Positions 24,406-63,660 of a stretch of 64,000 bases of DNA are shown here, in pieces. The notes beneath the pieces were generated by a model, which worked only from the letters and a program-made list of their open reading frames with translations, did no database searches and was not told where the DNA came from. Position 1 is the first letter of the stretch. Every line of letters begins with the position of its first letter. The translations under genes and the position numbers were made by a program. The stretch is from NCBI GenBank assembly GCA_964016885.1, contig OZ024744.1:29202001-29266000 (forward strand). Direction: 5' to 3'. Source of the stretch: Eledone cirrhosa (Eukaryota).

Positions 24406-24408
<3 letters not shown>

Positions 24409-25885: not shown

Positions 25886-25973
25886 AATATTTGCTCTACG
25901 GTTCTTATATATTTGATATATATTTATCCTTATCAAGCCCTCTTTGGATTTTAGTCTTCAAATTTATTATTAT

Positions 25974-26666: not shown

Positions 26667-26674
26667 TTATCAAA

Positions 26675-35941: not shown

Positions 35942-36065
35942 AAGGTACAGGGCCGTCTTAACGCATGGGTACGCTGGGCAGTTGCCCGGGGGCCCCACGA
36001 GGATAGGGGGCCCATGCTAATCTATGTATGTAGCGACTTGCGGTGAATTGATAAATACTATACTA

Positions 36066-36420: not shown

Positions 36421-36422
36421 GT

Positions 36423-37135
36423 TTAACCCTTTAATGTTCAAACCGCCCAAAATCGCCCGAAATTTTTTCCCCTTCATTTGTTCAAACCGCCCGAAATCGC
36501 TCGAAAACACCCACACTAAAACATCGTTCTAAAAATAAACAAACCATCATCAAAATCTCGTCAATTCGAGACTGCTGCGAGATTTAGGCCCTTACCGCGA
36601 AAATTAACACTTAATATAGTGAAACAAGTTAAAACAACAAGTGTTTTTTTAACTTTGAAAGCCCAACAAATTTTTTTTTTGTATCAACATGGCTTATGAA
36701 AGTAGCGATACCGACTTTAAACACACGACGACATTCAGAATAAACAAGAAACAAACGATAATATCTTCAAATGAATGTTTATATTTCTGAAATTTCGTCC
36801 GACGATGATTGTTTTGAAAGTGAAAACGAAGGAGATCTCCAGGACGCCATTGAAAATATTACAGCAACGTGTTTGAAAAATACTAATGTTCCCGATTTTA
36901 TTCAAATTACTGGTCCACAACACACATTAGCTCCCGATGCTAAAGCACTGGATTATTTCTTTTTGTTTTTACCACAAACTTTCTTCGAAGTTGTGGCAGA
37001 AGAGATTAATCGATATGCCCAACAACAGATTTCAAATCAAGGAAAACCCGATCTGTTTGGCGTCCGACAGATGCTGCGGAAATGCAAGCATTTTTTGCCG
37101 TAAATATTATATTCGGTATAAAACAATTTCCAAGA
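36423..37135 (+). mobile_element. piggyBac 5' end and transposase N-terminal remnant
   Basis: TTAA|CCCT start. ALDYFFLFLPQTFFEVVAEEINRYAQQ, then frameshifted WRPTDAAEMQAFFAVNIIFGI (PGBD-type). Confidence 0.75.
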
Positions 37136-37675
37136 CTGTGGAGGAGAACGTTCATTTTCAAGACAGAGACTTATAAAAAATCAGCTTCGCAGCATAATGG
37201 GGTAGCAGCGTTTGAACTGGCTTTCACTCATGTGTATGGAAAATGAAATCCTGAAAACCATTGACTTCAAGCCATTTATAAAGCAATTCTCTTCAAAGAA
37301 ATTTTGCAAATATTTGTATTGACCACCTGATTATTAATAAATAGTTCATCGTAATTTGATACTGCGCGATCTGTATGCTTTACGAATTGAATATCATCTG
37401 TGCTGATTTTTTTGTGTTTTTCAAGGCTCATGTTATATTGTTCAAACGTTTGTGTTAATTAATCTTTGATGTACCACATGTTTTTAATGTATAAACACTG
37501 ATTTCGTTGGAAATACCAATACAATGAATATATCTTTAATTATATTGATCATTTGTATTTTTATTCCTGTGAGTGGTTGTGAAGGTAGGGGCCCCAGTGC
37601 TCAGCTTTGTCCGGGGGGGGGGGCTATAATGCTGTTAAAATGGCCTGTGTCCGGGGGGGGTGCCTATAATGCTGT

Positions 37676-43067: not shown

Positions 43068-43267
43068 TTGGCAGTATCGGTAGTGGGTCGGACGCTATGC
43101 TTTCCAGCATAGTTACGTCCCTTTACGATCTGAGTTCAAATCCCGCTGAGGTTGACTTTGCCTTTAACCCTTACGGGGTCGATAAAATAAAGTACCAGTA
43201 ATGCACTGGGTAATTGTGCCTTGTGCCTAAAGTAGAAACAATTATTATTATTATTATTATTATTATT
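43068..43267 (+). mobile_element. SINE + (ATT)n tail between Tx1 C and Tx1 D
   Basis: A box tggcagtatcgg, B box gttcaaatccc, tail 43241-43267. Confidence 0.92.
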
Positions 43268-43480
43268 GAATGCCATGGTTGACGGAGGCTCGGCTCTGTA
43301 AGGTATAGTAATTTTTAACCGTTAAAACAATTGTAAATTGTTTAAAACTTGAACCAAATTGTTGATAAAGACACCCTCCTCCTCGTGAGAGGGGTCTTTC
43401 TGTCCGTTATTTGGCCCTTCGGGTTAAATAACCAGTTATTGGGGTTTTGTACCCAATATTCATTTTAAACAAAAATCAAC

Positions 43481-45247
43481 ATGGCTACGAAAAAGAAATT
43501 TCATACGTCACTCCCACTCATTCCGTTTTCTTCTTCCTCAATCATCACTACAGCAGAGAGAAGATTGTCTCTCTCCCTCCCTTCTTTAAATGTGTCTCTC
43601 TCCCTCCCTTCTCTTTCGCAAGTGACGAAAGAAAAGAAAAGTCTCGTGCAAAGCGTGCAAGGTTTCTCCACGACGACGACGACAGCGACGAAACAGGTGT
43701 GCGGGAAATACGAAAACCCAGTTCATTCGGCTGACGTCAGGAATAATAGCAGTAGCAGCCGTAATAACAACAGCAACAGTGACAATGAAAACAACAGTAG
43801 CAGCCGCAACAGCATCACCAGCAGCATAAACAACAACAGCATTAGCAGCAGCAACACCAACAACAACCACAGCAACAGCGGCGGAGGCAGTAGTCGTAGT
43901 ACCTGCAGCAACAACAAAAGTACCAGCAGCTCTGACGACAACAACAACAATAGCACCAAAGAAAAACCAATCTCATTTGCAGGCATTGCGAGAAACTTGG
44001 AAACAATCCTCATAACAAATGAGGAATTAGAGGAAGCGAAGAAGATGGTGACAAAGAATGGACACCGAGCAATCTGCAAGGCAGCGGAAAATTTTTTCGA
44101 AACCCAACAGCACTGTACGGTCACGTACCGTACAGTAAGTACAAAATCCCGTAGGGTGGAAAGAGTCACAGAGGCTCAGATACAAAAAGCCTTGGGGTCT
44201 GTGTGGCAACGGAAAACGCACATCACCCGAGGCAAAAAATATGCCACCGTAGACGTACTTTTTGCCACACCCCAGGAGGCAAAGGCCCAATCAGTAGTGA
44301 CCCTAAGGAGCGAGGAAATGGTGTTGGTGCCCTCCTACTGCGGGCAAAAAATTGTGAGGGTCAAACTGACCCACGTCCCCCCCGGAATGGCCCCTTCTTG
44401 GCTGGCCGCGTCTGTCCTCGTCGGAATCGAGGACAAAACAAATGTACTTCAAGTACAGAAAAAAGTAAGAGAAGATTGGGTAGGCACCTCCATTGAAATG
44501 CTAATCCAAACCAACCAGGAGTGCATCGAAGCTATCCCGGATGTGATAGACTTCGATAACGGCACTCAACTGCCCATAAGTGTTGAGGGCAAACGCCCGA
44601 AATGCTTTCGCTATGCATCGAAGACTCACCTCAGGGCCTTCTGCAACGAGAAGACCCTGAGAAAGGAGAAAACCCCCCTCTTTCCGAAACCGGCGCCACG
44701 GCTACCAGCAACAGGACAAGCGGCAACCAGGAACGATAGGTCCGTGGCACCCATACCCACGCCACGGAAATCAAAAACAGCAGCAGCATTGGAAATATTA
44801 ACAACAACAACAGCAATACCAAATGCAGCTGCAACAGAGACTCCAGTGCAAATATCACCAACAACAACAAGTGAAAGAGTGGAGCTGGTACCCCTCCCCG
44901 ACCTCACAGAATCAGACATGGAGTGTGAGGTGGGAGAGGGATGGCAAAAGGTCGTAAGAAGGCACAAACGCAGAAGCAGCGCATCGTCGCCTTTGAAAAG
45001 GGAGGAAAGAAATGAGAAAAGGGTAAAGTCTACTGCAAAGAGACCCACAACAGCAACACCACCAACACCATCACCACCCACACTAGCACCACCATCACCA
45101 CCGGCGACAACCCCACCGCCAACAACACCTTCAACACCACAAGCACCAACATCGCAAACACAACGACAAAACACACACACCCAGCAACAACGACAAGAAA
45201 ATAGCAGAACCACACCCACCCCCAGAAAAACAAATGCACGGCAATAA
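43481..45247 (+). CDS. Tx1 ORF1 (nucleic-acid-binding gag-like protein), probably prematurely ended by frameshift
   Basis: 588 aa. N/S-rich N-terminus, conserved core shared with copies A/E/F, knuckle CFRYASKTHLRAFC, P/T-rich tail. The conserved C-terminal domain continues out of frame to ~45576. Confidence 0.8.
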   Translation: MATKKKFHTSLPLIPFSSSSIITTAERRLSLSLPSLNVSLSLPSLSQVTKEKKSLVQSVQGFSTTTTTATKQVCGKYENPVHSADVRNNSSSSRNNNSNSDNENNSSSRNSITSSINNNSISSSNTNNNHSNSGGGSSRSTCSNNKSTSSSDDNNNNSTKEKPISFAGIARNLETILITNEELEEAKKMVTKNGHRAICKAAENFFETQQHCTVTYRTVSTKSRRVERVTEAQIQKALGSVWQRKTHITRGKKYATVDVLFATPQEAKAQSVVTLRSEEMVLVPSYCGQKIVRVKLTHVPPGMAPSWLAASVLVGIEDKTNVLQVQKKVREDWVGTSIEMLIQTNQECIEAIPDVIDFDNGTQLPISVEGKRPKCFRYASKTHLRAFCNEKTLRKEKTPLFPKPAPRLPATGQAATRNDRSVAPIPTPRKSKTAAALEILTTTTAIPNAAATETPVQISPTTTSERVELVPLPDLTESDMECEVGEGWQKVVRRHKRRSSASSPLKREERNEKRVKSTAKRPTTATPPTPSPPTLAPPSPPATTPPPTTPSTPQAPTSQTQRQNTHTQQQRQENSRTTPTPRKTNARQ

Positions 45248-45610
45248 ATACACACAAGAAACTAATGACTTACATAATTGAACACACAGACATTTCACAA
45301 CAGGACTACATAATACCAGCACCAATCAAAACGCCAACTAACATAAGACTGCTAAAAAAATCGCACAGAAACAATACACAAATATTAAAACGAAATTCCC
45401 CAATGCAGTTGGTGATTTCAGGGACCTAGGAGGAACTATCAATCAAAGAGTATATTCAGACATTCTCTTAGAAGAGCCGACGACCAGCCGAAGGGACGAT
45501 TCAACGGTCCCTTCACCAGACGATCAAGTGAAAAGGGATGTAAAAACCATCCCTCCTCTACGAAAAGTACGGTAAGTGGTCTTTCCCATCTTTTCCACTC
45601 TATTTTAAAC

Positions 45611-48600
45611 ATGACCTCACTCAGAATAGGCAGCATAAATGCGCGTGGCTTGGGGTCGTCATGGAAGCAGGGTCACCTGCTCAACGACCTCAGGTCACTA
45701 AACATAGATGTAGTGGCCATCAGCGAGACCAGAATCTCCGAAGCACGGGCCTTCGCACCGATCTTCGGCGGCTACGATGTGTACGCATCTCCCAGCCGTC
45801 CTGGATCGGGTGGGGGAGTTGCTGTGCTTTTTCGGAGAGGTTTGGATCTCGCCATACGGGCCATCTTCCTGGACCCAGAGGGTAAGCTGGTGGTGCTGGA
45901 CGTGACCAGCGGAGACGGGCAAGCTTTCAGGCTAGTGGCCGTCTATGCCCCGACAGGAGCAGGGCGGCCTGATTTCTTCCGGCGTCTGGAGACCTTTCTT
46001 GGAACGTCCCGCTCTTTAGTGTTAGTGGGCGACTGGAACGGGATCTTAGATGCACGCTGGGACTGTGTGGGATTAGCGGATAGGGGTGGAGGGTGCAAGA
46101 GCCTCACCAACCTGCTCAGGCGTTTTGAACTGTCTGACAGGTACCGATTGGATTTCCCGAATGTGCCAATGTGGACTTGGACAAACCGCATAGGGTCATC
46201 CAGATCATATCTAGATAGAGTATTTTGTAGGGAAATAGATAAGTCTAGCATAGGCTGTCCACAATTCAAGATAGTCAGCTACACGGACCACAAATTCGTG
46301 ATCTGTGTGCTTGACTTAGATAGGCTTCATAGACGAGGACCCGGCTACTGGAAGCTAAACGCGTCTTTACCAGCGCGCAAGGCCTACAGAGACCGGATTA
46401 GCGAACTAGTTAAGCGGGCGTTGACGGGGGCCATCGTCAACAACAAGTGGTGGTTTGCTCTGAAAAGAGCGATTAGAACAGAATCGATTAGGTTTAGTAA
46501 GGCTTTAGCAATAGAGAAAAATAGAGCAGAGGGAGAACTAGTTAGAAAATTAGACGAGGCGCTTAGCAAAGGCATTGCGACCGACGTGCTTGCGGCGAAA
46601 TTGGCCCTTGACCAATTCTTCAATGCAAAGCACGAAGGCTGCGTTGTCAGAGCAAGGGTGCGTGCTCTCAGACACGAGGGGACGAAAGCCGTTCAATGGG
46701 CCCGAGTGGCGGAGGCGCGTCGTGGCAACAAAGCCACGATCCGGTCTTTGGTGGACCACGACGGGCGCATGCTACTCGATCCCGGGCAAATGTGTGAAGC
46801 TTTTCAGCGACACTTCGCTCAGCTGTTCGGGGGCAGCGGTGGGCCGGGTAGAGGGATGGACTTTAGTGTCTACCTCGACGGACTGCCGCGGCTCTCGGCC
46901 ACTGAGGCGAAGTGTTGCGAAAAGCCGATAACAGCCGCTGAAGTAAGGGAGGCAATGACTGGCTGCACAAGGGGTAAATCGCCTGGTTTGGATGGTCTGC
47001 CCTATGAACTTTACGTACAGATGCCAGACTTGTTCGGAGGCCTCTTGGCGGACGTCTACTGCAACTGGCAACAGAACGGGAGAATTCCCAGTTCTGTGAG
47101 CCGAGGAGCGGTGGCACTGCTGAGAAAGGATCCGAACAAGGGGGATAACATAGACAATTTCCGGCCCATAACTCTGCTAAACACAGAGTTTAAGATTTTG
47201 GCCAAGGTGCTAGCAAAGAGGTTGGCGCTTGTCGTTGGTGGTCTGGTGGGAGAGGCGCAGACATGCGCCATTCCCGACAGATCCATCCACGACAACCTCC
47301 ACCTCATGCGATACATCGTAGAGAGGGTAGCTAGGGAACCTGGCACGGGTGGGTCCTTGATCAATTTAGATCAGTCGAAAGCTTTCGATAGGGTCGACCA
47401 TCGTTACCTAGCGGCAGTCCTGAGGGCGGCTGGCTTTGGGCCCGTCTTCAGAGGCTGGATCGCTGCCATGCACAGCGACATCTGCTCTGTGGTGAGAGTG
47501 AACGGTCACCTGTCGGAACCGTTCAACATCATGCGCTCGGTCCGCCAAGGATGTCCCCTCTCGTCCCTCTTGTACGTATTGACTCTCGAGCCATTACTGC
47601 ACAAACTGGAGACGTTGAGGGGAGTCCCGCGCGAACTAGGATGCGGAAGATCCGTGTCAGCATATGCGGACGATGTCACCGTAGTGGTGTCGAACGCCAA
47701 ACACATCGAGGCGATCGGCACTACACTAAGAGAATACGAAGCGGTGACAGGATCAATGATCAACCAGGAAAAGTCAGTGGGCCTGCAGCTCGGCACCTGG
47801 AGAGGCAGGTCCATGCCGTCCAACAGCGTCGTCGGGCACTGGACGGACGGACCGGTTAAATTGCTAGGGGTCTGGTTCGGTCCGGACCTCCAGACGGACA
47901 AAAACTGGGACGAGGTGACGAGCAGGGTGGCTTCTCTCACCCAGAAATGGGCGGAGAGGAAGCTATCCCTGAAAGGTCGAGCGGAGGTGGCTAACGCGTA
48001 CATCGCGTCTGTCATCTGCTACCGCCTAACCGTCGTACCTTGTCCTAAGCCTCGCCTGACTGCGCTGGAGCGTTTGCTCTTTCGCTTTTTGTGGAAGGGA
48101 CGTGCTCCGATGATCAGGCGGTCCATCTGTTGTCAACACCCGCTACGTGGAGGGCTGGGCATGCCGTGGCTGATGATGTGCAGGCACGCGCTCAGGCTAC
48201 GACATCTCCACCTCTTCCTCGACGGTGATCAGGTGTGGTCGCCGTTTGCTAGACGCGTTTTTCCCCAGCTCGTTTCCTTGACGGAGCTGCAGTCCTGGGT
48301 CAAGCGAAGACCGAGAGGGAGCGCCTGGAGACTGGAATGTCTTCAGGCGCTCACAGCCCTCGACCAATCGGGCAATGTGATCGGTGGAAACTCCACCTCG
48401 GCGTTCTATAGAGGATTAGTGGAGGGGAAGAGCGACGACGTACTTGGGGAAACTCTAGGCGTCGACGAAAATCAACTAGCCAATCTCTTCGGAAGAACTT
48501 TCGGGCCAGGGCCTATGGACAACTTCCAGAAATCTCTGGCCTGGCAGTGCTACCGAGGAGCCTTGCCAGTTCGGGATAAACTCTACAGGCATGGAGGTGC

Positions 48601-49030
48601 CGTCAGCCGGGCATGTCCGAGATGCGCGCAGGGCGACGAAACCGTCCTGCACGCACTCGTCCAGTGTCCGAAAATTGCTGACTTGTGGGTTTATGTCGAA
48701 CACCTGCTGTCGCGTTTAGGACGGATCCAGCTATCATCTGAGTCTATCGTGAGGATTGCCCCGCCCTCCTCCTTTAGCCGGGAAGGGCAGGCAGTTTTTA
48801 TCTGTCTGGTGGCCATGGCGAAAGAGATAGTATGGTGGACACGTTTGAAAGGGCTGAAGACGAGCACTTACCTCTTCGGTGATGCTCTGATTGACTTTTT
48901 CAAATTTCATTTGAAAAGGAAAATCAGAGTAGAGAAGGAAGTGCTCTCTTCCCAGCATTTTGTTGAAAGATGGGTGAGAGAAGCAAGAATGGCCCGAGTG
49001 AATGGGCCGACTCTGAGTATATATCTGTAA
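45611..49030 (+). CDS. Tx1 ORF2: APE endonuclease + reverse transcriptase + CCHC zinc knuckle (1139 aa, intact)
   Basis: GSINARGL, ISET, GDWN, SYLDR, YTDH; WKLN; KSPGLDGL, FRPITLLN, LDQSKAFDRV, VRQGCPLS, YADD; CPRC..ETVLHALVQC. Confidence 0.97.
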   Translation: MTSLRIGSINARGLGSSWKQGHLLNDLRSLNIDVVAISETRISEARAFAPIFGGYDVYASPSRPGSGGGVAVLFRRGLDLAIRAIFLDPEGKLVVLDVTSGDGQAFRLVAVYAPTGAGRPDFFRRLETFLGTSRSLVLVGDWNGILDARWDCVGLADRGGGCKSLTNLLRRFELSDRYRLDFPNVPMWTWTNRIGSSRSYLDRVFCREIDKSSIGCPQFKIVSYTDHKFVICVLDLDRLHRRGPGYWKLNASLPARKAYRDRISELVKRALTGAIVNNKWWFALKRAIRTESIRFSKALAIEKNRAEGELVRKLDEALSKGIATDVLAAKLALDQFFNAKHEGCVVRARVRALRHEGTKAVQWARVAEARRGNKATIRSLVDHDGRMLLDPGQMCEAFQRHFAQLFGGSGGPGRGMDFSVYLDGLPRLSATEAKCCEKPITAAEVREAMTGCTRGKSPGLDGLPYELYVQMPDLFGGLLADVYCNWQQNGRIPSSVSRGAVALLRKDPNKGDNIDNFRPITLLNTEFKILAKVLAKRLALVVGGLVGEAQTCAIPDRSIHDNLHLMRYIVERVAREPGTGGSLINLDQSKAFDRVDHRYLAAVLRAAGFGPVFRGWIAAMHSDICSVVRVNGHLSEPFNIMRSVRQGCPLSSLLYVLTLEPLLHKLETLRGVPRELGCGRSVSAYADDVTVVVSNAKHIEAIGTTLREYEAVTGSMINQEKSVGLQLGTWRGRSMPSNSVVGHWTDGPVKLLGVWFGPDLQTDKNWDEVTSRVASLTQKWAERKLSLKGRAEVANAYIASVICYRLTVVPCPKPRLTALERLLFRFLWKGRAPMIRRSICCQHPLRGGLGMPWLMMCRHALRLRHLHLFLDGDQVWSPFARRVFPQLVSLTELQSWVKRRPRGSAWRLECLQALTALDQSGNVIGGNSTSAFYRGLVEGKSDDVLGETLGVDENQLANLFGRTFGPGPMDNFQKSLAWQCYRGALPVRDKLYRHGGAVSRACPRCAQGDETVLHALVQCPKIADLWVYVEHLLSRLGRIQLSSESIVRIAPPSSFSREGQAVFICLVAMAKEIVWWTRLKGLKTSTYLFGDALIDFFKFHLKRKIRVEKEVLSSQHFVERWVREARMARVNGPTLSIYL

Positions 49031-49290
49031 ACTAAAGGTGGAAAACTGGGAGAGGGCACTTGCCTTGGTGGTCAGGGTCATTGTGGCTTTTTACTGGGCT
49101 TTCTCCACAAATGTCCCTCCGAAGTCTCCCCCCTATTGGGGAATTTTTCATTGTTATTTTCATTGTTATTTTTGTTACATCCTCTGTTTTTGTTTTTTTA
49201 CACGCAGAAATGCCCATTTGTACCGTCCTGCATTGTCCTGCACTGTCCTTAATGTCTACTTTATGTAAACCCTTGTGGTTAATAAAGAAA

Positions 49291-49325
<35 letters not shown>

Positions 49326-49327
49326 AA

Positions 49328-49529
49328 GGCGGTGGACTGTTAGTATCGGTAGAGGGTCGAACGCCATGCTTTGACGTATAGAGTTACGGCCCTTCTATTC
49401 TGAGTTCAAATCCCGCCGAGGTAAACTTTGCCTTTCATCATTACGGTGTCGATAAAATAAAGTACGAGTAATGCACTAGATAATTGCTGGCCTTGTGCCA
49501 AACGTAGAAACAATTATTATTATTATTAT
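49328..49529 (+). mobile_element. SINE + (ATT)n tail between Tx1 D and Tx1 E
   Basis: Same SINE family; ends ccttgtgccaaacgtagaaacaattattatt. Confidence 0.9.
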
Positions 49530-49530
49530 A

Positions 49531-52500
49531 ATCGTGGAAGTATACACGTCGCGGGATATTTTGTTCCCGTAAGTTTGTGATTTTTTAACAGTTTTTATTG
49601 AGAACTTCATGTAAAAATCATATTGTTTTGTGTTTAAACACACCCGCTTCTTTTGAAGTGGTCGAAATTAATCGGTATTTAGCCCTTCCGTGCTAAATTC
49701 CAATTTGAACTTTGCATTTAGCTAATACGTCCTATCGTGGAAGTATACACGTCGCAGAAATAATTTTGTTCCCGTAATTTTGTGATTTTTGAAGTTTTAT
49801 TGCGAACTTAATGTAAAAATCCTATTGTTTTGTGTAAACACACCCCACTTCTTTTAAAGTGGTCGGAATTAATCGGTATTTAGCCCTTCGGGGCTAAATC
49901 CTAATATGAACTTTGCATCTAGCAAATACGTCAAATCCATTTCCATGCCGTGTATTCACTCAAAAATTACCCTATCTGCAAAATATCCTTCTCAACCTTC
50001 ATTTTTTTCGTCCAGCTGTCAGCGTGGAGTCTCGCTTTCCTTTTCGTCTTCTTCACCGTCCCATAGTCAAGCGAATGACACTCCCCTCTACCCTCCATCA
50101 AGTAGCAGTCGTGAAGCGGCTACTACTGATACATTTGATACATTTGACATCAAAGAAACTAGCAACAGTCAGCGTGGAGTCTCGCTTTCCTTTTCCTCCT
50201 CTTCACCAAATAGTAAAAGTCAGACGAATGCCACTCTTTCCTCTTCACCCAACCGCAGTCTTGAAGTGGCTACTGCTGATACATTTAACAACAATAGAGA
50301 TAGCAGCAGCAGCGGCAGTATTAAACATAACACCTGTGGTAGCAGTAGCGGCAGCAGCAGCAGCAACACCAACAACGCCGTTTGTAGCAGTGACAACAAC
50401 AAGACCAGTAGCAGTAGTAGCGGTGGCAACAACGATGCCACTGAAAAAGAGACCACCTCTTTTGCAAAAATAACTCGCAACGTTAAACAATCATGATCAC
50501 AGAGGAGGAGATGACGGTCGCAAGAAACATGGTAACGAGAAATGATTTTTCAGTGTCCTTGAAACCACCAACCGACTTCCTGGAGGAACAAGAGCGACGC
50601 ACAGTGTCGTACCGCACGATTGCCACAAAATCACGTCGTGTGGAGAAAGCGTCGGAGGCCCAAATCCAGAAGGCTTTGGGAACTGTGTGGGCACGGAAAA
50701 CCCACATCACCCGTAGCAAGAAATACTACTGTGGACGTCCTTTTTGCCACCACCCAGGAAGCAAAATCGCACTCACTGAGGACCGTACGAGGTGATGACA
50801 TAACGCTAGTCCCGTTTTACTGCGGGAAAAATTGCAAAGGTCAAGGTAACCAAGGTGCCTCCCTACGTACCCGTGCCTTGGCTGGTTGTGTCTTTTCTTG
50901 CAGGCATCGAGGGTAGAACAACCATTCTGCAGGTACAGAAGCTGGGGAGCGAGGACTGGTCCGGTATTGGAATGGAGATGCTCATCTAAACCGACGAGGA
51001 CTGCATCAGCACTATTCCCGACGTAATAGACCTCGGGAATGGCTCCCAATTTTCCATATATGTTGAAGAAAGGCGCCCAAAATGCTTCAACTGTGGATCA
51101 AAGTCTCACTTCAGGGCTTTCTGCCCACAGAAAATAACAAAGGCCAAAATCACCCTCCTTCCAACGCCGGAACCGCTGCCATGAGAAACAGAGCAGTCAA
51201 CGAAAAAGTCGGGAGCTTCTACAGAAAATAGTAAGACACCGTCTGTGACACCCACACCAAAGCCACAGAGAACAAAAACAGCGATGGCAGCTGCAGCAAC
51301 AGAAATAATTGCACTAGCTGCACCTGCGCCAAGACAAATGAAATTGTAGAACTCATACCTTTCCCCGACTTCTGACAGTCGGACATGGAGTATAAGGCGG
51401 CTGAGGAGTGAAAACGGTTGTTAACAAAAATAAAAAAACGGGGCTAGTAAATAAGGGAGGAGGATGTAAAAGCCTCAACAACCTTTGGCCAAGGTATTAG
51501 CAAAGAGATTGGCGCTTGGCGTCGGTGATCTGGTGAGAGAGGCGCAGACATGCGCCATTCCGGACAGATCCATTCCCGACAACCTCCATCCCATACATCA
51601 TAGAGAGAGTGGTTAAGGAACCTGGCACGGGTGGGGCCCTGATCAACTTGGATCAATCTAAAGCATTTGATAGGGTCGACCATCGGAACCTCGAGGCGGC
51701 TGGCTTCGGGCCCGTTTTTAGGGGCTGGATCGCTGCGATGCACAGCGACACAGCGACATCTGCTCGATTGTGAGGGTGAATTGTCACCTGTCACAGCCTT
51801 TCAGCATCATGCGCTCGGTCCTCCAGGGTTTCCCCCTCTCGTCACTCTTGTACGTACTGGCCCTAGAGCCGTTACTACACAAATTGGAGACCATGAGGGG
51901 GGTCCCACGCGAACTGGGATGCGGGAGATCCGTGTCAGCTTATGCCGACGACGTCATCGTGGTGGTGTCGAGGCCCAAACAGGTCCAGATGCTCGGCACC
52001 GCTCTCAAGGAATACGAAGCGATGACAGGAGCAAAGATAAACCAGGAAAAAGTCGCTGGGCTTGTAACTCGGCACCTGGAGAGGCAAGTCCATGCCGTCC
52101 GACAGCGTCGTGGGGCACTGGACGGAAGGACCGGTTAAATTGCTCAGGGTCTGGTTCGGTCTGGACCTACAGATAGAGAAAAGCTGGAGCAAGGTGACGA
52201 GCACTGTGGCCTCTCTCACCCAGAAATGGACTGAGAGGAGGATGTCTCTGAAAGGTCAAGCGGAGGTGGCGAATACGTACATAGCGTCCGTCATTTTCTA
52301 CCGCCTGACCGTCGTACCTTGCCCCCGCCCAACTCTGACCAAAATGGAGCGCCTTCTCTTCCGCTTTTTGTGGAAGGGACGTGCTCCCATGGTCAGACGA
52401 TCTATTTGCTGTCAACACCCGTTGCGAGGAAGACTAGGCAAGCCGTGGCTGATGATGCGCAAACATACGCTGAGGTTGCGACATGTCTGGTGCTTCCTTG

Positions 52501-53581
52501 ACGGTAAACAGCTGTGGTCGCCGTTTGCCAGATGCGCTTTTCCCCAGCTCGTCTCCTTGACGGAGCTGCAGTCCTGCATCAGGAAGAGGCCGAGGGATAG
52601 CGCTTGGAAGCTGGAATGTCTCCAAGCGCTCACCGCCCTCTACTGGCTGGGCACTAGTATCGGTGGAACATCCACCTCGGCGTTCTATAGAGCGCTAGTG
52701 GAGGGAAAGAGCGACGACGTTCTCGGGGAGACTCTGGGCGTCGAAGACGATCAGCTGTTCGTTCTCTTCAAAAGAACTTTCAGACCGGGGTCTATGGACA
52801 AATTCCAGAAATCCCTGGCCTGGCAGTGCTACCGGGGAGGGTTGCCGGTTCGGGATAAGCTCTACAGGCACGGAGGTGCTGTCAGCCGCGCCTGTCCGAG
52901 ATGCGTGCAGAGCGACGAAACCGTCCTGCACGCAAACGTTCAGTGCCTGAGGATTGCTGACTTGTGGAGCTATGTCGAACAGTTGCTGACGCGTGTAGGA
53001 CTGATCCGGTTATCGACTGAGTCCATTGTGCAGATAGCCCCGCCATCCTCCTTTAAGGGGGAGGAAGGGCAGGCAGTTTTCATCTGCCTGGTGGCCATGA
53101 CGAAACAAGATTGAAAGGATTGAAGACGGACACTTTCCTCTCCGGTCAATCCCTGATTACCTTTTTTAAGTTTCACTTGAAGAGGAAAATCAGGGTGAAG
53201 AGGCAAGTGCTCTCTTCTAGTAAGTTTGTTGAAAGGTGGGTGAAAGTGGCAAGTCTGGTCCGAGATAACGGGCCCGCTCTGAGTATACGCCTGTAGACTG
53301 AGGAGTTGGAAAAGTGAGAGAGGGTGCTTGCTCTGGTGGTCAGGGTAGCCGTGCTATTTTTGTGTGGTTTTCACCACGAGTGACCCTCGGAGTTTTCCCC
53401 CTTCTTGGGGAATTTTTGTTGTTTGGATTTTTGGGGGGATTTCTAGCCCGATTTTGTTATAACCTGTTTACACGATCAAAACCCACTTTGTATCGTCCTG
53501 TACCGTTCTGTGCCGTATCTAATGTTTTTCTTCGTGTCAGCCCTTGTGGCCAATAAAGAAACCATTATTATTATTATTATT
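49531..53581 (+). mobile_element. Tx1 element E: duplicated ~200-bp 5' UTR, disrupted ORF1, most of APE and the RT N-part deleted
   Basis: atcgtggaagtatacacgtcgc repeats at ~49531 and ~49734. Deletion joints at ~51440 and ~51484. ORF2 remnant to 53296. Ends cccttgtggccaataaagaaaccattatt. Confidence 0.88.
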
Positions 53582-53810
53582 GGGGCGGTGGATTGGCAGT
53601 ATCGGTAGAGAGTCGGACGCCATGCTTTCCAGCATAGTTACGTCCCTTTACGGTTTGAGTTTAAATCCCACCGAGGTTAACTTTGCCTTTCATCCTTACG
53701 GAGTCGATAAAATAAAGTACCAGTAATGTACTGGGTAATTGCTGGCCTTGTCCCAAAAGTAGAAACAATTATTATTATTATTATTGTTGTTATCATTATT
53801 ATTATTATTA
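53582..53810 (+). mobile_element. SINE + (ATT)n tail after Tx1 E
   Basis: ggggcggtggattggcagtatcgg...ccttgtcccaaaagtagaaacaattatt. Confidence 0.92.
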
Positions 53811-53869
53811 ATTTTTTTTTACCAATTCAGTGATGTTCCAAAACAATATAAAAGAGATAATTGGTAATA

Positions 53870-56800
53870 ATGGAGGGGCCCCAGGGTATCACAGCCTGAG
53901 CCCGCTCGGCATCGTGCCACTGTAATAGAGCCAAACAAAGCATTTAATATTGGCTGCTGGAACGTACGGACCATACTGGACAGGGATTCCTCGGAACGTC
54001 CAGAACGAAGGACCGCTCTTGTTGCAAAGGGCTCCGACGTTACGATCTTGACATCGTGGCTTTATCTGAGACGAGGTTAGCTGGAGATGGTCATCTTACA
54101 GAATTTTGTGGAAAATATACATTCTTCTGGAAAGGAAGAGATGAAGGAACCAGAAGAGAGGCTGGGGTAGCATTTGCTGTTAAGACTGCTCTTGTGCATA
54201 AATTAGAAGAATTTCCAGTGGGGATTAGTGAGCGTCTTATGTCCATGAGAATTCCGCTGGACAAAGGAAGATATGCATCCCTGGTGAGTTTGTATGATGC
54301 AACTATGAATTCTGTCGATGAAGATAAAGTGTCCTTTTACCATGCCTTGAAAGGTGTTTTAAGAAATATCCCTCAGGCAGACAAAGTCATCGTGCTTGGT
54401 GACTTTAATGCTAGAGTGGGTAGGGATTTTAACACATGGAATGTAATCGGAAGGCATGGAGTGGGAAAGTGTAACAACAATGGTATGCTCCTGCTGCAGA
54501 TGTGTGAGGAGCTGGATCTGTGTGTTACCAACACTATGTTCCAGCAAGAGAACAAATATAAGACCACATGGATGCATCCTGCATCTAAGGAATGACATCT
54601 TTTGGACTACGCCCTAGTCAGGATGCGTGACAGATGGGATGTGCAGTTTGTTCGTGCTCTTCGTGGAGCTGAGTGCTGGATGGACCACCGCCTGGTACGC
54701 GAAAAAGTGAAATTAATCACTAAACGTAAAATCCGGGTTCCTGGTGTTGCCCTGCCCAAAAGATTGAATGCTACTCGTCTTAAGGATAAAAATGTGAAGA
54801 GGACATTGGAAGAAGAGATGCAGGTTGCAGATCTTGGTGAGGATTGGCGACCCTTAAAAAGTCGGTTTATGATGTAAGCAGGCGTGTTCTGGGATTGATG
54901 CAGAGAAAACATCAAGACTGGTTTGATGAGAATGATGTACATATAGAAGACTTGTTGGCTGATAAGAGGCGTGCTCTGTCACCCTACTTGACGGCAAAAC
55001 CACAGGAGAAGAATATGTTGCATAAGGTACTCAAGGATGTGAAATCACGTGTGAGGCGGAGTCTTTCTCAGATGAAAGATCAGTGGTGGAGTGAGAAGGC
55101 TGGTGAGATACAAGCTACGTCAGATTCCAATAACACAAAGTTGTTTCTTGCGTGAGGTTTATGGACCGTTTTCTTCTCTGGTGACACCGCTTCGCAGCAA
55201 GGATGGTAAGAAACTTCTTCGTGACTCACAAGGAATTCTGTGAAGGTGGCGAGAGCACTTTGATGAACTTTTGAATCAGCCGTCTGTCGTCAATGAAGAT
55301 TTCCTCAATCTCATTCCTGAAAAACCTGTGAGGTAGCGCTCGCAGAACCTCCGACGCTTGTGGAGGTTGCAGTAGCTATCTCGAAGCTGAACAGTGGAAG
55401 GTCTCCAGGTATGGATGGCATACATGCAGAGCTCTTACAATATGGTGGTGAGAGACCTCTGCAACATCTTCACTCTTTCTTTGGCAGGATATGGGGTAGT
55501 GAATCCTTACCTGAGGACTACAGAGATGCAGTAATGGTAGTCTTGTACAAGGGAAAGGGTAACAGGAATGATTGTGGAAACTACAGAGGTATATCATTGT
55601 TTTCCGTCGTAGGGAAAAATTTTATGTAGGGTGTTTCTGGACCGTCTGCTGACACACATTGCAGATTGTGTGCTTTCTGAAAGTCAATCTGGTTTAGGTG
55701 CTGGACGCGGCACTACTGATATGATCTCAGCTAGACAACTCCAGGAGAACAAGGAACAAGGCTTGGATCTGTATCAGGTTTTGTCGATCTGACAAAAGCT
55801 TTCGATACTGTTAACAGAAATGCATTGTGGAAGGTTCTCCAGAAACTTGGTTGCCCTGATAGGTTCCTTGTTTGGTTAGGTCTTTCCATGACGTGAAGAA
55901 GGCTTGGGTTAATGTCAGAAGTAACATGTCGGAGCCTATCTCAGTAAAAGAAATGGAGTGAAACAGGGGGATATTTCAGCACCGATCCTGTTTGCCATGT
56001 ACTTTGGTTTTCTGTATTGCATTCAGGAATTTGTTGCATTCAGGAATTTATTGCATTCGGGCGCTTTGTTGCACTCAGAGAGTGGTATGCAGCACATTTT
56101 GAATGCATTTTCTGATGCTTGCACTGCCCTAAGATTGACTGCCAGTCTCAAGAAAATCGTCGTCATGTACCAACCTTCCCCTGGTAAGTAGTACAGTGAG
56201 TCAAATATCTATGTGTATGGTAAACGACTTGGAGTGGTTGTCTACCTGGGAAGCACTGTCAATCGAAACAGCAACTTTGATAATGAAATTCCACTCAGGA
56301 TTAGGAAAGCAGGTGATGCTTTCGGAAAGCTAGAAAGGTGCCTCTGGGGTCGGCGATACATATGCAAGAAGACAAAGGTAAAGGTGAACAAGGCATGTGT
56401 GCTCTCTTCTCTTCTTTATGCCTGTGAGACCTGGTCACATACCGACACAACCTTAAACAACTGGAGCATTTCCATGGCGTTCACTGGAGGGACCATATCA
56501 GTGATGTCGAGATCGTGGAAATATCTCTGTGTGACAGTATAGAAGCTCTTGTGCTTAAGCAAAGACTCCGTTGGAGTGGTCACCTTGTCAGAATGAAGAA
56601 TTCTAGAATACCAAAACAACTCTTTTATGGAGAGTTAATTAAAGGAAAACGACCTCCACATAAACCAAAAAATAGGTATAAGGATTCCTTGAAAGCCTCT
56701 TTGAAAGACGCTAACATGTCTGCTGATACATTGGAAAATGTAGCTGCTGATCGTAATAAATGGAGAAAGACTGTGTATGAGGGGTAAGTTGCCTTTGAGG

Positions 56801-57190
56801 CATCTCGAATCGCATACGAGAAAGTAAAGCGGGATGGGCATTACTGTTGCATTTCCAGACAGCGAAGGTCTTCCTATGGTGCTGACATGCAGCGTCTGTG
56901 TGAGACTCTGCCTAAGCAAAGCTGGACTCGAAAGTCATCTTCGCAGTCATAAAATAAGACCAGTGGTTGACTACCAGGCTGCTGTTGGAGATGCTACTCA
57001 TCATGCTTGCAAAGCATGTGGTAGAGAATGTTAATCAGCAGGAGGGCTCAAACGACATGCAAAAGTTCATGAACTCCAACCACAGCCGACTATTCCCAGT
57101 GAATGTTTTGGTTGCCAAATCTGTGCAAAACATTTTAGATCATTGGCTGGGCTAAAAATCCACATTCGATCTCAGCCCGTTAATTGTCAT
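53870..57190 (+). mobile_element. Degenerate RTE (BovB-like) LINE with C-terminal C2H2 fingers
   Basis: NIGCWNVRT..RPERRTALVA, VALSETRLAGDG..YTFFWKG, LGDFNARVG, CGNYRGISL, DLTKAFDTVNR, RLRWSGHLVRM..RIPKQLFYGEL. Confidence 0.9.
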
Positions 57191-57244
57191 TCTGTGTGTG
57201 TGTGTGTGCGTATGGGTGTATGTGTGTGTGTATGTATATATATG

Positions 57245-57279: not shown

Positions 57280-57329
57280 ATATATTTTATTATTATCATT
57301 GGTCACATCGGAAGTCTTTTTGCTCGCTC

Positions 57330-60300
57330 CCAGGAAGTCGCTTTATTTACCTGTCACAAATTATTATTGTTAAATTTTTGTTATTGTGTAAGGGACATAA
57401 GCCATTGGACTTTGCCCTGCTAAGAGGAAAGTATAATATTTGGGCCTTTTGGCCCAATTATTTGAACATTTTACTTTCAAAAATTATCAAATAAATATGG
57501 CTGAGCCATGCCACCAACAACACCAACAGCAACACTGCAAATTGCACCGAAAACAACAACAACGGTGGCACCAAAAACACAACCAACTACAACAGTGATA
57601 ACAGCAACATCACCAACAACACCATTTGTAGCAGTAGCAACAGCAACAGCACCAACAACAAGACCAGTAGCAGCAGCACTGAAAGAGGGGCCACTTCTTT
57701 CGCAGGTGTGGCCCGAAATATAGAAACAGTGCTCGTCACAGAGGAGGAGATGACAGTCACAAGGGCCATGGTGACAAAAAATGCCAATGGAATTTCCCTG
57801 AAACCTTCACCCGATTTTTTCAAGGACCAGCAGCTACGCACGGTGACTTACCGCACCGTAAGCAAAATGTCACATCGGGTGGAAAGAGCCACGGAGGCTC
57901 AAATCCTAAAAGCCTTGGGGTGCGTCTGGGCGCGCAAAACCCACATCACCCGAGGCAGAAAGTACTCCACAGTAGACGTACTTTTTGCTACACCCCAAGA
58001 GGCGAAGTCTCACTCTTTGGAAACCCTAAAGAGTGAGGAGATAGTTTTCGTGCCCTCCTACTGCGGTCAAAGTGACCCAGATCCCGCCCGACATGCCCAT
58101 ACCCTGGCGGGCCACGTCTGTCCTTGCTGGAATCGAGGACAGGACCACCATACTGCAAATACAGAGAATGTGAAGAGAGAACTGGTTAGGTATAGGCATA
58201 CAAATGCTAATACAAACTGATCAGGAGTGTATCAAGGCCATCTCAGATATCATAGACTTCGAGGAAGGACTCCAACTCCCTATAAGCGTGGAAGGAAGGC
58301 GCCCAAAATGTTATCTCTGTGAGCAAAATAGTCACCTCAGGGCATTTTGCCCGCAGAAGACAGCCAAGAAGAGGGGGCCCCTCCACCCGACGCCTGATCC
58401 GGTGCTACCGAGAGCAAGACAGGCAACAGAGGCAGAAGACCCTTCCACCGTGAGTAGGAGGGCAACGTCCGTGGCACCCGTACCAAGGCCACAGACAACT
58501 AAAACAGCGGCAGCAGTGGCGGCAACACCAGTAGCTACATTTGCAGTAGCTGCACCAGCAACAAAATCGTCAGAGGGGGCTCCACTACCACCACCAACAG
58601 CAGTGGAGCACATACCCCTCCCAGACGCCACGGAATCCGACATGGAGTCTGAGGCGGGAGTGAAGTTGTAAAAGGTCTGCCACAAAAAAAAACAAAAAAC
58701 GAAAGAGCCAGTTAGCTTCACCCTCCAAAATTGAGGACAAACAAAGAAGGGTAAAGCTGCAAGGCGTTTTCAGTAACGCTACCACCAACACCACCACAAG
58801 CATCATCACCAACAACAGCCACACCACCACCAACATCACCAAAAACACCAACATCGCAAACACAACAAAGCACACACACCCAAGAGCAACAACAAGAAAA
58901 CAGCAACAAAACCACCACCACCACCCCCACACCGACCCCCACCCCCCAAAAAAGTACACAGCCATAAACATTGCACACCAAAGATTAATGGAATACATAA
59001 AACATCACACCGATATTTCAGACGTAAATTACCACACCCCACCAATACCAAGAGCATTACCTAAAAATATTAACATTGTGGAAATTGAACTCGAAGATTA
59101 TAAACAATTAAAACAAAAATCCACAACTCAGTTGGGGATTTCAGGGGGTCACTCTCCAAGAGAATCTATAAAGGTATCATCTTGGAGACACCCATGACCA
59201 GCGGAAAGGACGGTTCTACTGTCACTTCCCCAAACGATTAAGGTAAGTGATCCTTTCTCACTTACCCCGTTCCTCATCCAACATGGGGGTGCTTAGAATA
59301 GGCAATATAGATGTACGCGGCCTGGGGTCATCTTGGAAGCAGGGCCACCTGCTCAACGACCTCAGGTCACTAAACATAGATGTGGTGGCCATCAGCGAGA
59401 GCAAAATATCCGAAGCACGAGACTTCGCACCGATCTTCGGTGGCTACGATGTATACGCATCTCCCAGCCATCTGGGAGCGGGAGACGGAGTTGCTGTGCT
59501 TTTTCGGAGAGGCTTGGATCTCGCCATACGGGCCATCTTCCTGGACCCAGAAGGTAAGTCAGTTTTACTGGACGTGACCGGCAGCGAAGGCAATGCTTTC
59601 AGGCTAGTAGCTGTCTAAGTCCCAGCAGGGGCAGCACGACCAGATTTCTTCAGACGTCTAGAGACCTTTCTGGGAACGTCCTGCTCTTTAACGTTAGTGG
59701 GTGACTGGAACGGTATCTTAGATGCACGCTGGGATTATGTGGGGCTAGTAGACAGGGCAGAAGGGTGTAAAAGCCTCAGCAACCTGCTCAGACGTTTTGA
59801 ACTGTCTGATAGGTATAGACTTGATTATCCGAATGTGCCAATGTGGACATGGGAAAACAGTATCGGGTCATCCAGGTCGTATTTAGATAGAGTATTCTGT
59901 AGGGAAACAGATAAGGTTAGCCTAGGTTGTCCACAATTTAAAGTGGTCGACTACACGGACCACAAATTTTTGATCTGTGAAGTTGACTTAGATAGACTCC
60001 ATAGGCAAGGGCACAGTTACTGGAAGCTGAACGCGTCGTTCCCGGTGCGCAAAGCTTACAGAGACCGGATAAGCGAATTAGTTAAGCGGGCGTTGACGGG
60101 TGCGATCGTTAACAGCAGGTGGTGGTTTACTCTGAAAAGGGCAATTAGAGTAGAATCGATAAGGTTTAGCAAAGGTGTAGTGATAGAGGAAAATAAAGTA
60201 GAGGGTGAGCTAGTTAGAAAGCTAGAAGAGGCGTTTAGGACAGGCATCAGACCGACGTGCTTGCGGCGAGATTGGCACTCGACCAATTCTTCAACGCAAA

Positions 60301-62684
60301 GCATGAAGGCTGCGTTGTCAGAGCTAGAGGTCGTACTCTTAGACAAGAGGGACGAAAGCCGTTCAATGGGCCTGAGTGGTGGAGGCGCCACGTGGCAACA
60401 AGTCCACATTTCGGTCTTTGCTTGATCAAAACGGGCACATGTTGATCGAACCCGAGCAGATGGGTGAGGCTTTTCAACAGCACTTTGCTCAATTGTTCGA
60501 GAGCGACGGCCGGCTGGATCGGAGTATGGACTTCGGTGCATACCTCGACGGACTGCCGTGGATCTCGACGACCGCAGCGCATTGTTGCGAAAAGCCGATA
60601 ACAGCAGGTGAAATACGGGAAGCGATGTCTGACTGCACGAGGTTCGGAAGGTCAGCACTACGAACTTAATGCGAATATGCCAGATTTGTTCGGCGACTTC
60701 TTGGCCGATGTCTACTGCAACTGGCAGCAGAACAGGAGCATTCCCAGTTTTGTGAGCCGGAGAGCGGTGGCGCTGCTGAGAAAAGACCCGAATTAGGGGG
60801 ACGTTATAGACAACTTCAGGCCCATAACTCTGATAACCCCACAGATTAGGATTTGGGCCAAGGTGTTAGCAAAGAGATTGGTGTTTGTCGTCGGTGATCT
60901 GGTGGGAGAGGCGCAGGCATCCGCCATTTCGGACAGATCCATCGACGACAACCTCCACCTCATGCGATACATCATAGAGAGGGTGGTTGAAGAACCTGGC
61001 ATGAGTAGGGCCCTGATCAACTTGGATCAATCTAAAGCATTTGATAGGGTCGACCATCGGTACCTGGCTGCGGTCCTCAATGCAACCGGCTGGATCGCTG
61101 CGATGCACAGCGACATCTGCTCGATTGTGAGGGTGAATGGTCACTAGTTACAGCCTTTCAGCATCATGCACTCGATCCGCTAGGGTTGTCTTCTCTCGTT
61201 CCTTTTATACGTATTGGCCCTCGAGCCGTTACTGCACAAATTGGAGACGATGAGGGGTGGTCCGACGCGTACTGGGATGCGGGAGATCCATGTCAGCTTA
61301 CGGTGACGACATCACCACACTCATCCAGAAATGGGCCGAGAGTAGGCTGTCTCTGAAAGGTTGGGCGGAGGTGGCGAATTCGTACATCGCAGCCGTCATC
61401 TGCTACAGCCTGGGCATCGTACCTTGTCCCCGCCCAACTCTAACCAAAATGGAGCGACTTCTCTTCCGCTTTTTGTGGTAGGGACGTGCTCCCATGGTCA
61501 GACGATCCATCTGCTGTCAACACCCGTTGTGTGGAGGACTAGGCATGCCATGGCTGATGATGCGCAAACATGCGCTGAGGCTGCGACATCTCTGGTACAT
61601 CCGTGGCGGTAAACAGCTGTGGTCGCCGTTTGCCAGATTCGCTTTTCCTCAACTCGTCTCCTTGGCGGAGCTGCAATCCTGGATCAGGAAAAGACCAAGG
61701 GATAGCGCTTGGAAGCTGAAATGTCTCTAAGCGCTCATTGCCCTCTACTAGCTGGGCACTACTATTGGTGAAACATCCGCCTCGGCGTTCTATAGAGGGC
61801 TGGCTAGTGGAGAGAAAAGAGCGACGACGTTCTCGGGGAGACCCTGGGCGTCGTGACGATCAGCTGTTCGCTCTCAAGAGAACTTTCAGCCCGGTGCCTA
61901 TGGACAACTTCCAGAAATCCCTGGCCTGGCAGTGCTACCGGGGAGCGTTGCCGGTTCGAGATAAGCTCTACAGGCACGGAAGTGCTGTCAGCCGAGCCTG
62001 TCCGAGATGCGCACAGAGTGACGAAACCATTGTGCACGCATTCGTTCAGTGTCCGAGCATTGCTGACTTGTGGAGCTCTGTCGAACAGCTGCTGTCGCGT
62101 GTAGGACGGATCCGGTTATCGACTGAGTCCATTGTGCAGATATCCCCGCCATCCTCCTTTAAAGAGGAGGAAGGGCAGGCAGTTTTATCTGCCTGGTGGC
62201 CATGGCGAAAGAGATTGTGTGGTGGACAAGGTTGAAAGGGTTGAAGACGGACACTTTCCTCTCCGGCCAGTCCCTGATTAACTTTTTCAAGTTTCACTTG
62301 AAGAGGAAAATCAGGGTGGAGAGGCAAGTGCTGTCTTCTAGTAAGTTTGTTGAAAGGTGGGTGAAAGTGGCGAGTCTGGTCCGAGTGAACGGGCCCGCTC
62401 TGAGTATGCGCCTGTAGACTGAGGAGTGGGAAAAGTGGGAGAGGGCGCTTGCCCTGGTGGTCAGGGTGGCCGTGGTCTTTTGTGTGGTTTTCGCCATGAG
62501 TGACCCTCGGAGTTTACCCCTTTTCGTGGAATTTTTGTTGTTTTAATTTTTTATTTCTATCTTGTTATAACCTGTTTACATGGCCAAAACCCACTTTGTA
62601 TCGTCCTGTACCGTTCTGTGCCGTCTCTAACGTTTTTCTTCATGTTAGCCCTTGTGGCCACTAAAGAAACCATTATTATTATTA
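57330..62684 (+). mobile_element. Degenerate full-length Tx1 element F (same family as A; ORF2 from ATG 59283 to 62417)
   Basis: ORF1 ARNIETVLVTEEEM.., knuckle CYLCEQNSHLRAFC, APE and RT motifs. Ends cccttgtggccactaaagaaaccattatt. The 5' boundary is approximate. Confidence 0.9.
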
Positions 62685-62881
62685 TGGATTGGCAGTATCG
62701 GTAGAGGGTCGGACGCCATGTTTTCCAGCATAGTTACGTCCCTTTACGGTCTGAGTTTAAATCCCGCCGAGGGTGACTTTGCCTTTCATCCTTACGGGGT
62801 CGATAAAATAAAGTACCAGTAATGTACTGGGTGTTTGCTGGCCTTGTGCCAAAAGTAGACATAGTTATCATTATTATTATT
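62685..62881 (+). mobile_element. SINE + ATT-rich tail after Tx1 F
   Basis: tggattggcagtatcgg...ccttgtgccaaaagtagac, then ttatcattattatt. Confidence 0.9.
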
Positions 62882-62889
62882 GTATTTTA

Positions 62890-63660
62890 CCCTACATGTC
62901 GGCTCTTGTGGCTAATAAATGAAATCAGCACGACGGAGAGATCCTGGGCATCGAAGATCAGCTGTTTGCTCTCTTCCGGAGAACTTTCAGCCCAGGGCCT
63001 ATGGATAACTTCCAAAAATCCCTGGCCTGGCAGAGCTACCGGGGAGCGTTGCCGGTTCGAGATAAGCTCTACAGGCACGGAAGTCCTGTCAGCCGAGCCT
63101 GTCCGAGATGCGCGCAGAGCGACGAAACCGTCATGCACGCACTCGTTCAGTGTCCGACATTGCTGAATTGTGGAGCTATGTCGAACAGTTGCTCTCACGT
63201 GTGGGACTGATCCAGTTATCGACTGAGTCCATTGTGCAGATGGTCTCGCCGGCTTCCTTCGAGGAGGACGGGCAGGAAGTTTTCATCTGCCTGGTGGCCA
63301 TTGCGAAAGAGATTGTGTGGTGGACAAGGTTGAAAGGGTTAAAGACAGACACTTTCCTCTTCAGCGAATCCCTAATTAACTTTTTCAAGTTTCACTTGAA
63401 GAGGAAAATCAGGGTGGAGAGGCAAGTGCTGCTTTCTAGCAAGTTTGTTGAAAGGTGGGTGAATGTAGCGAGAATGGTCCGAGTGAACGGGACCGCTCTA
63501 AATATACGCCTGTAGTTTGAGAAATGGAAAAATTGAGAGAGGGCGCTTGCCATGGTGGTCAGGATGGCCGTGGTCTTTTGTGTGGTTTTCGCGACGAGTA
63601 ACCCTCGGAGGTTTCCCTCCTATTGGGGAATTTTTTATTGTTTCAATTTTCATTTTTATT
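62890..63660 (+). mobile_element. Solo family-C Tx1 terminus (62890-62927) joined to a 5'-truncated Tx1 copy G
   Basis: ccctacatgtcggctcttgtggctaataaatgaaatca matches 43025-43062. Then MDNFQKSLAWQ...ALNIRL* and a partial 3' UTR. Confidence 0.85.

Follow-up and report, generated by a model that had tools for sequence, protein, structure and literature searches.

L1-group LINEs are the textbook relaxed type, and among LINEs of the Tx1 clade target-sequence preference is common, although not universal. Stringent pairs are known in the L2 clade (UnaL2/UnaSINE; ZfL2-1 and ZfL2-2), where a 3′ stem-loop with a specific loop, short repeats and an end shared with the SINE occur together; for the zebrafish elements ZfL2-1 and ZfL2-2, a conserved loop and an exchangeable stem were shown by assay (PMC4176376, in its accessible portions, where the 29 text matches to “Tx1” are mutant names and not the clade). 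L1-clade tails are found in 3 SINEs among 58 pairs, all from plants and algae (maize/sorghum and Chlamydomonas). ZmSINE2/3–LINE1-1_ZM of maize and SINEX-3_CR–L1-1_CR of Chlamydomonas combine a tRNA SINE with a conserved L1-group terminus and a predicted hairpin with compensatory changes, over ∼50–80 shared nucleotides (accessible parts of PMC3472496 and PMC3747384). In Table 1 of PMC3747384, as far as accessible, neither a Tx1 partner nor an octopus SINE appears.

Microsatellite-preferring elements of the Tx1 clade that probably mobilize SINEs are on record. Crocodilian SINEU was linked to Tx1-Mar by target preference and shared heads; its copies start with snRNA heads and end in poly(A), and the authors found no LINE that corresponds to the SINEU-1 3′ half (accessible text of PMC4494074). 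The Tx1 families Kibi, in (TC)n, and Koshi, in (TTC)n, and likewise Dong, in (TAA)n, insert into simple repeats that also form their tails, and the accessible parts of the two papers mention no SINE partner for Kibi or Koshi (PMC4494074, PMC3812793).

The window analyzed here, a 64,000-nucleotide stretch of DNA, contains a SINE and a Tx1-like LINE that share a 3′ terminus. The shared terminus is real, and the pair is best read as the known stringent SINE/LINE trick with an unusual partner clade. Compared with the L2-clade pairs as described in the available text of PMC4176376, the partner here belongs to the L1 group (Tx1-like), the predicted stem has only 3–4 bp, and the pair is known from sequence alone. 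The maize and Chlamydomonas pairs belong to the green lineage, whereas this one is animal, shares ∼22 nt and ends in (ATT)n, not poly(A) (PMC3472496 and PMC3747384, in part). For SINEU, too, a Tx1-clade LINE (Tx1-Mar) was proposed as partner, on the strength of a shared target preference; the present pair is instead connected through its 3′ terminus, and its target is a run of ATT (available text of PMC4494074). The target repeat also equals the tail, as in Kibi, Koshi and Dong, but is sense-strand (ATT)n (PMC4494074 and PMC3812793, in part).

We place the probability at roughly 70% that this is a stringent-type pair whose SINE is mobilized in trans by the Tx1-like ORF2, with recognition of loop and stem, nicking and priming all inferred. 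A sequence-only reading of this DNA had already proposed a tRNA-SINE partnered with a Tx1-clade LINE. Support for the partnership comes from a terminus that SINE and LINE share in register with the tail, from its conservation across subfamilies, from a common loop whose stem carries a flipped pair, and from joint placement in (ATT)n. The label “Tx1” is based on domain architecture. The predicted hairpin and the nesting in (ATT)n are new here. One window, 22 nt and a weak hairpin mean that the pair is not yet proven. If true, a Tx1-type pair in an animal would support stringent recognition as ancestral in the L1 group, would offer a tiny RNA signal together with an open ORF2 for testing how the loss of stringency came about, and would point to a candidate driver of octopus SINEs.

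The octopus tRNA SINEs OK, OR1 and OR2, reportedly described by Ohshima and Okada in 1994, are like the present SINE in likely host group, size and Pol III boxes, as compared by description. The SINE body may resemble the CORE domain of the octopus OR1/OR2 CORE-SINEs; OR1 itself is absent from the MetaSINE supplement. OR1 and OR2 are termed CORE-SINEs in the accessible parts of PMC4824008 and PMC4758252. Neither these nor the accessible parts of PMC8967140, PMC13282606, PMC9115989 and PMC10294476 name a partner LINE for octopus SINEs, and those of PMC3531059, PMC5753468, PMC9004415 and PMC9223172 add nothing on such partners. A SINE sharing a Tx1 tail is not described in the open full-text literature that we searched, and a text search for the motif gave neither an octopus nor a SINE paper among the 20 of 30 matches listed; Repbase, Dfam or SINEBase may note the pair. 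SINEs make up 11.7% of the Octopus vulgaris genome, and 1,279 of 1,317 families are unclassified (PMC13282606 supplement).

SINE and LINE copies in the window

Between 27 and 64 kb, the window consists of clustered copies of a single L1-group LINE, all on the plus strand and most of them broken, interspersed with SINEs, a single RTE-like LINE and a single DNA-transposon-like insert. Eight near-complete SINE copies (∼185 nt, 83–96% alike) are present; they are short (<700 nt), non-coding and dispersed, with a simple-repeat tail. The SINE copies mapped in the window are these:

1645–1828, plus strand: SINE copy without a preceding LINE
5746–5919, minus strand: 5′-truncated SINE copy between ATT runs; a 5′ SINE fragment lies next to it at 5678–5638
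9926–10114, plus strand: solo SINE lying within (TA)n and lacking an ATT tail
26672–26852, plus strand: solo SINE with an 11-bp target site duplication
43070–43240, plus strand: 5′-truncated SINE copy in the tail of a subfamily B LINE
49324–49512, plus strand: diverged SINE copy (83–86% to the others), flanked by two ATT runs
53583–53767, plus strand: SINE copy of ∼185 nt with an A-box-like motif, a mutated B box and the tail motif at 53746–53767
62684–62863, plus strand: 5′-truncated SINE copy with a 13-bp low-complexity direct repeat that starts at the last base of the LINE terminus

By consensus patterns, an A-box-like motif occurs in 4 of the 8 copies and a B box in 5, and the 11-bp duplication is the one clear target site duplication among them. 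Two copies gave no tRNA match at E ≤ 10, and ARAGORN found 0 genes; a missing tRNA match is usual for decayed SINE heads. We rejected a match of the SINE body to U2 snRNA (E 3.5, 12 bits vs. a cutoff of 46), which a second copy did not repeat. More than 92,000 contigs match the LINE-end/SINE stretch in each of two public runs, and the summed contig depth on the SINE is ∼10 times that on the LINE end, a rough ratio that is not a copy number. Depth in these runs suggests that the SINE is one of the major octopus families, which the driver link needs. Loose contig ends in the same runs hint at longer SINE forms with the same tail. At 3820–4080 on the minus strand stands a SINE relative that is old and diverged (72% in the central part) and has a longer stretch ahead of its end.

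Tx1-like 3′ ends number seven and fall into three subfamilies (A, B and C). The LINE copies, ends and reading frames are as follows:

1890–2000, plus strand: 5′-truncated subfamily A LINE end behind the tail of the SINE at 1645
35913–35938, plus strand: subfamily A LINE terminus, its tail split by another insertion
37676–43061, plus strand: degenerate Tx1-like copy, subfamily B; terminus with a 1-nt insertion
43269–49292, plus strand: Tx1-like LINE, subfamily A, apparently full-length, between (ATT)9 and (ATT)10
43481–45247, plus strand: ORF1 of that copy, open; no Pfam match, resemblance to CCHC/ZCCHC3-type RNA-binding proteins
45611–49030, plus strand: ORF2 of that copy, open, 1,139 aa; APE endonuclease, reverse transcriptase and C-terminal zf-RVT
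49267–49292, plus strand: subfamily A terminus with predicted hairpin AACC-CUUGU-GGUU, AATAAA and GAAATC
49528–53563, plus strand: degenerate Tx1-like copy that begins directly after the ATT tail of the SINE at 49324–49512
53538–53563, plus strand: 3′ terminus of Tx1-like LINE subfamily C with predicted hairpin GCC-CUUGU-GGC, AATAAA and GAAACC
57296–62671, plus strand: degenerate Tx1-like copy, subfamily C, with an ATT run at both ends
62885–62926, plus strand: very short 5′-truncated LINE end, subfamily B-like, after a SINE tail

The 5′ boundary of the full-length A copy (43269) is set by the ATT run. Its ORF2 matches Pfam domains PF03372, PF00078 and PF13966 and carries a C-terminal cysteine-histidine motif (CxxC...H...C) at residue 1002; among solved structures, the best match is human L1 ORF2p (E 1.6e-52), with R2 at E 1.6e-21. 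The Atlas look-alikes of ORF1 are CCHC/ZCCHC3-type proteins (score 0.91–0.94), and its zinc knuckle, CX2CX4HX4C, is intact in subfamilies B and C and degenerate in the full-length A copy. A CCHC zinc knuckle in ORF1 is typical of Tx1 and is not known from mammalian L1. By the usual criteria, the architecture (two ORFs, an APE-RT-Cys/His ORF2 and a CCHC ORF1) fits the Tx1 clade; protein searches with the LINE returned no named Tx1 reference among their matches. Among animals, the source-named relatives of ORF2 are confined to Argonauta hians (58% across 45% of the ORF2 protein) and Octopus sinensis, where one protein contains a fragment, so the host is likely an octopod. P0070 and P0082, short proteins annotated as Escherichia coli, are 64–74% identical to the LINE ORF2, probably through animal contamination of those records.

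Several smaller features adjoin these copies. At the 5′ end of one Tx1-like copy stands a tandem pair of 201-bp units (49531–49932, 87% alike); the 5′ regions of the subfamilies are otherwise dissimilar, a pattern that suggests promoter replacement. The DNA-transposon-like insert (35948–37648), which has short terminal inverted repeats, interrupts a subfamily A LINE end within its ATT tail, and the subfamily B LINE begins just 3′ of the insert. On the minus strand at 5695–5737, an (AAAT)n run is followed by the last 12 bases of the subfamily A terminus and ATT; flanked by two SINE pieces, this is possibly a minimal 5′-truncated LINE stub.

The shared 3′ terminus

The sequence-only reading had compared terminus strings of the LINE (53540 and 49269) and the SINE (49490 and 43218), and all four are found at those coordinates. 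The resemblance that it described is confirmed and extends past these sites to 7 LINE and 8 SINE ends. Its motif, ccttgtg-N(∼9)-agaaa, is indeed common to SINE and LINE ends, but the spacer is 8 nt; the SINE inside the interval to which it was assigned, 53539–53775, carries a substituted motif (CCTTGTC). In the window, CCTTGTG-N8-AGAAA has 8 exact matches, at 4 LINE and 4 SINE ends, where shuffles expect 0.01. With one mismatch allowed, CCTTGTG-N8-AGAAA-N2-ATT has 11, every one at an element end.

Because these patterns were fitted to the data, tail-anchored tests are fairer. Anchored at (ATT)n and compared without gaps, the LINE end at 53542–53563 is identical to six in-register SINE ends at 14–16 of 22 positions. 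A score of 16 is reached by 5 of 102,484 background positions with offsets of ±2 allowed, in a null whose 22-nt length was picked after the data were seen and whose background omits the satellite and element ends. Two SINE ends lie one base out of register (6–10/22 when tail-anchored), and subfamily B LINE ends have a 1-nt insertion in the terminus. Over all LINE/SINE pairs, mean tail-anchored identity is 11.7/22 in the last bin and 4.6–6.8/22 in seven upstream bins. In 4 of 4 long LINE copies (4–6 kb), no site matches the SINE tail better than the terminus does, and only the subfamily B copy has a tie.

Without the anchor, a local-alignment test was modest (61 of 34,160 background windows), and against shuffles it ranged from 84 of 3,000 for the best end to 1,583 of 3,000 for the weakest. 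Blastn between SINE and LINE gave no match of at least 30 nt, and a chance match of 17/22 lies inside the RTE ORF at 54190. The signal is therefore short and position-dependent at the exact terminus. We rejected a longer similarity upstream of the hairpin, which was no better than shuffles (64–461 of 500 score as well).

Between LINE subfamilies, the last 25 columns of the ends have 20–23 identities in five pairs, vs. 9–21 in upstream 3′ UTR bins; in a single pair, two upstream bins tie the terminal one. Subfamily B ORF2 fragments are only 52–66% identical to subfamily A, so the terminus was kept as the rest drifted. The ends of 80 distant L1/Tx1-like metagenome loci contained no copy of the motif, with no SINE or 3′ UTR match above 25 nt, which makes the motif lineage-specific. 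The 120 viral-contig matches were chance, and prokaryote genomes gave 0 and then 1 match, judged chance.

The SINE might have another LINE as partner (CR1, L2, Dong-R4 or an RTE family), with the Tx1-like motif explained by convergence on the same ATT target or by tails exchanged long ago. Most of the 58 published pairs have a CR1, L2 or RTE partner and none has Tx1 (PMC3747384 Table 1, as far as accessible), L1-Tx1 covers less of the O. vulgaris genome than RTE, Dong-R4 or CR1 does (PMC13282606; Dong-R4 93 Mb vs. L1-Tx1 56 Mb in its supplement), and TAA repeats are described as the Dong target in the available text of PMC3812793. The sole RTE copy in the window nevertheless ends in (TG)n/(TA)n and matches the SINE tail at 8/22, and a second family would need the same loop, spacing and tail by coincidence; we consider such a partner unlikely. 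A comparison of the SINE tail with all other LINE 3′ ends, which the sequence-only reading had envisaged, was made for window elements, namely the one RTE and one Penelope copy.

A predicted hairpin at the terminus

A hairpin of 3–4 bp is predicted around a shared CUUGU loop, with one stem pair flipped between LINE and SINE. The loop is central in all ends; one SINE copy has CUUUU, and one LINE end, with a 6-nt variant, is not among the 14 rows of the alignment (6 LINE and 8 SINE ends). LINE stems read GCC-loop-GGC or AACC-loop-GGUU, and SINE stems read GGC-loop-GCC. The second stem pair forms in 14 of 14 rows, as C-G in the 6 LINE ends and G-C in the 8 SINE ends. Two-sided change occurs in 3 of 4 stem pairs, and 82% of stem cells pair, compared with 21–50% in slid controls, although relatedness inflates these covariation counts, the flip is one evolutionary event and the structure was picked by eye. 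A random 5-nt loop has three flanking pairs in 5.3% of cases. RNAalifold returned no consensus structure for the aligned ends. When ends were folded singly, the hairpin was in the minimum-energy fold of 5 of 9 (z-scores −1.7 to +1.4), and its pairing probability was at least 0.5 in 7 of 14 ends in short context and in 4 of 14 with 100 nt upstream.

The SINE terminus departs from that of the LINE mainly at the LINE’s AATAAA, which 6 of 7 LINE ends carry within the conserved terminus and whose retention there is expected of a Pol II RNA. Exactly the AATAAA bases are lost in the SINE, and the loop, stem and terminal GAAA are kept, which suggests that the SINE took its end from Tx1-like RNA and kept the parts that the enzyme reads.

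The homology could also be real and recognition relaxed. ORF2 would then read (AUU)n alone, the LINE terminus would be conserved for 3′ processing (AATAAA and its neighbors), and the SINE motif would be a passenger of one old template switch, unless a LINE ancestor captured the SINE end by read-through. The placement of AATAAA and the weak hairpin agree with such an account, and abutting LINEs and SINEs are easy substrates for read-through and template switching. A passenger sequence, however, is not expected to keep the loop while changing both sides of a stem pair, and the SINE did so, dropping the AATAAA bases and retaining GAAA. We find relaxed recognition improbable.

Nesting in (ATT)n runs and a proposed mechanism

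Two such runs flank the SINE at 53583–53767:

53564–53581, plus strand: (ATT)6 run, both LINE tail and SINE insertion site
53768–53809, plus strand: (ATT)n tail of the SINE, with the RTE-like LINE next

The window has 18 ATT runs of at least 9 nt, of which 14 stand at a SINE or LINE junction in the orientation of the element; another 2 come within 70 nt of such a junction, and the last 2 are found elsewhere. ATTATT precedes 6 of 9 SINE starts, compared with 0.5–0.9% in the background; of the other three starts, one is in (TA)n, one has the 11-bp duplication and one has no repeat. SINE and LINE sit head-to-tail in each other’s (ATT)n runs. Between 37.7 and 62.9 kb the elements follow one another as LINE-SINE-LINE-SINE-LINE-SINE-RTE-LINE-SINE-LINE stub, and nearly every joint has ATT. 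At these joints, an ATT run may represent tail as well as target.

In another reading, the SINE is no independent passenger and instead forms the final portion of a LINE+SINE composite whose two parts are copied or duplicated together. In the 43–63 kb cluster, 4 of 4 LINE ends whose tail is uninterrupted do have a SINE directly behind them, and the pairs at 53563/53583 and 62671/62685 are alike in both parts (91% and 94%). Yet at least four SINE copies have no upstream LINE, and those behind LINEs vary in subfamily and 5′ truncation. The SINE at 43070 is nearer to solo copies (94–95%) than to the SINE at 53583 (90.5%), although a tree of the copies does not resolve their branching, and the direct repeat of one SINE overlaps the LINE end. 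Contigs of the two public runs also join a SINE end to another SINE (up to 21–23 contigs per joint, 80% likeness), which together with the roughly 10-fold SINE depth argues that most SINEs lie outside any LINE+SINE unit. A composite, which would leave the shared motif unexplained, is very unlikely. Chance resemblance of two AT-rich ends fits the weak unanchored tests, the 17/22 match in the RTE ORF and the non-independence of three LINE subfamilies as samples, but is equally far-fetched for a match that falls in the exact tail register, is the best site within 4–6 kb elements and has a stem pair flipped rather than broken.

Under the stringent-pair reading, the ORF2 protein would likely recognize the shared terminus as a small CUUGU-loop hairpin and copy the SINE in trans. 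By analogy with zebrafish L2 as described in the accessible portions of PMC4176376, it may read the loop by sequence and the stem by shape. It would nick the (AAT)n strand of a pre-existing ATT run, where the (AUU)n of the RNA could anneal and prime reverse transcription. Every new copy would deposit a fresh ATT run, which would produce the alternating LINE/SINE cluster at 27–64 kb. The SINE itself may have acquired its terminus from Tx1-like RNA by a template switch. Among the observations against the pair is the length of the shared stretch, only ∼22 nt compared with ∼50–100 nt in published L1-clade and RTE pairs. We give even odds to the broader proposal of an animal Tx1 element that is stringent through a minimal 3–4 bp CUUGU hairpin, primed at (ATT)n rather than poly(A) and the engine of the large octopus SINE expansion, in which LINE and SINE seed targets for each other and build head-to-tail clusters.

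The RTE-like LINE (53811–57192) is broken and begins directly 3′ of the ATT run that follows a SINE; its own end, (TG)n/(TA)n, lacks the shared motif. Outside the cluster, long inverted repeats (225 nt, 96%; 94 nt, 95%) enclose an element at 24402–25890, which is probably a non-autonomous DNA transposon. A satellite array at 11145–21514 (40-bp unit, about 259 copies, 79% matches) abuts a Penelope-like GIY-YIG ORF at ∼21548–22786.
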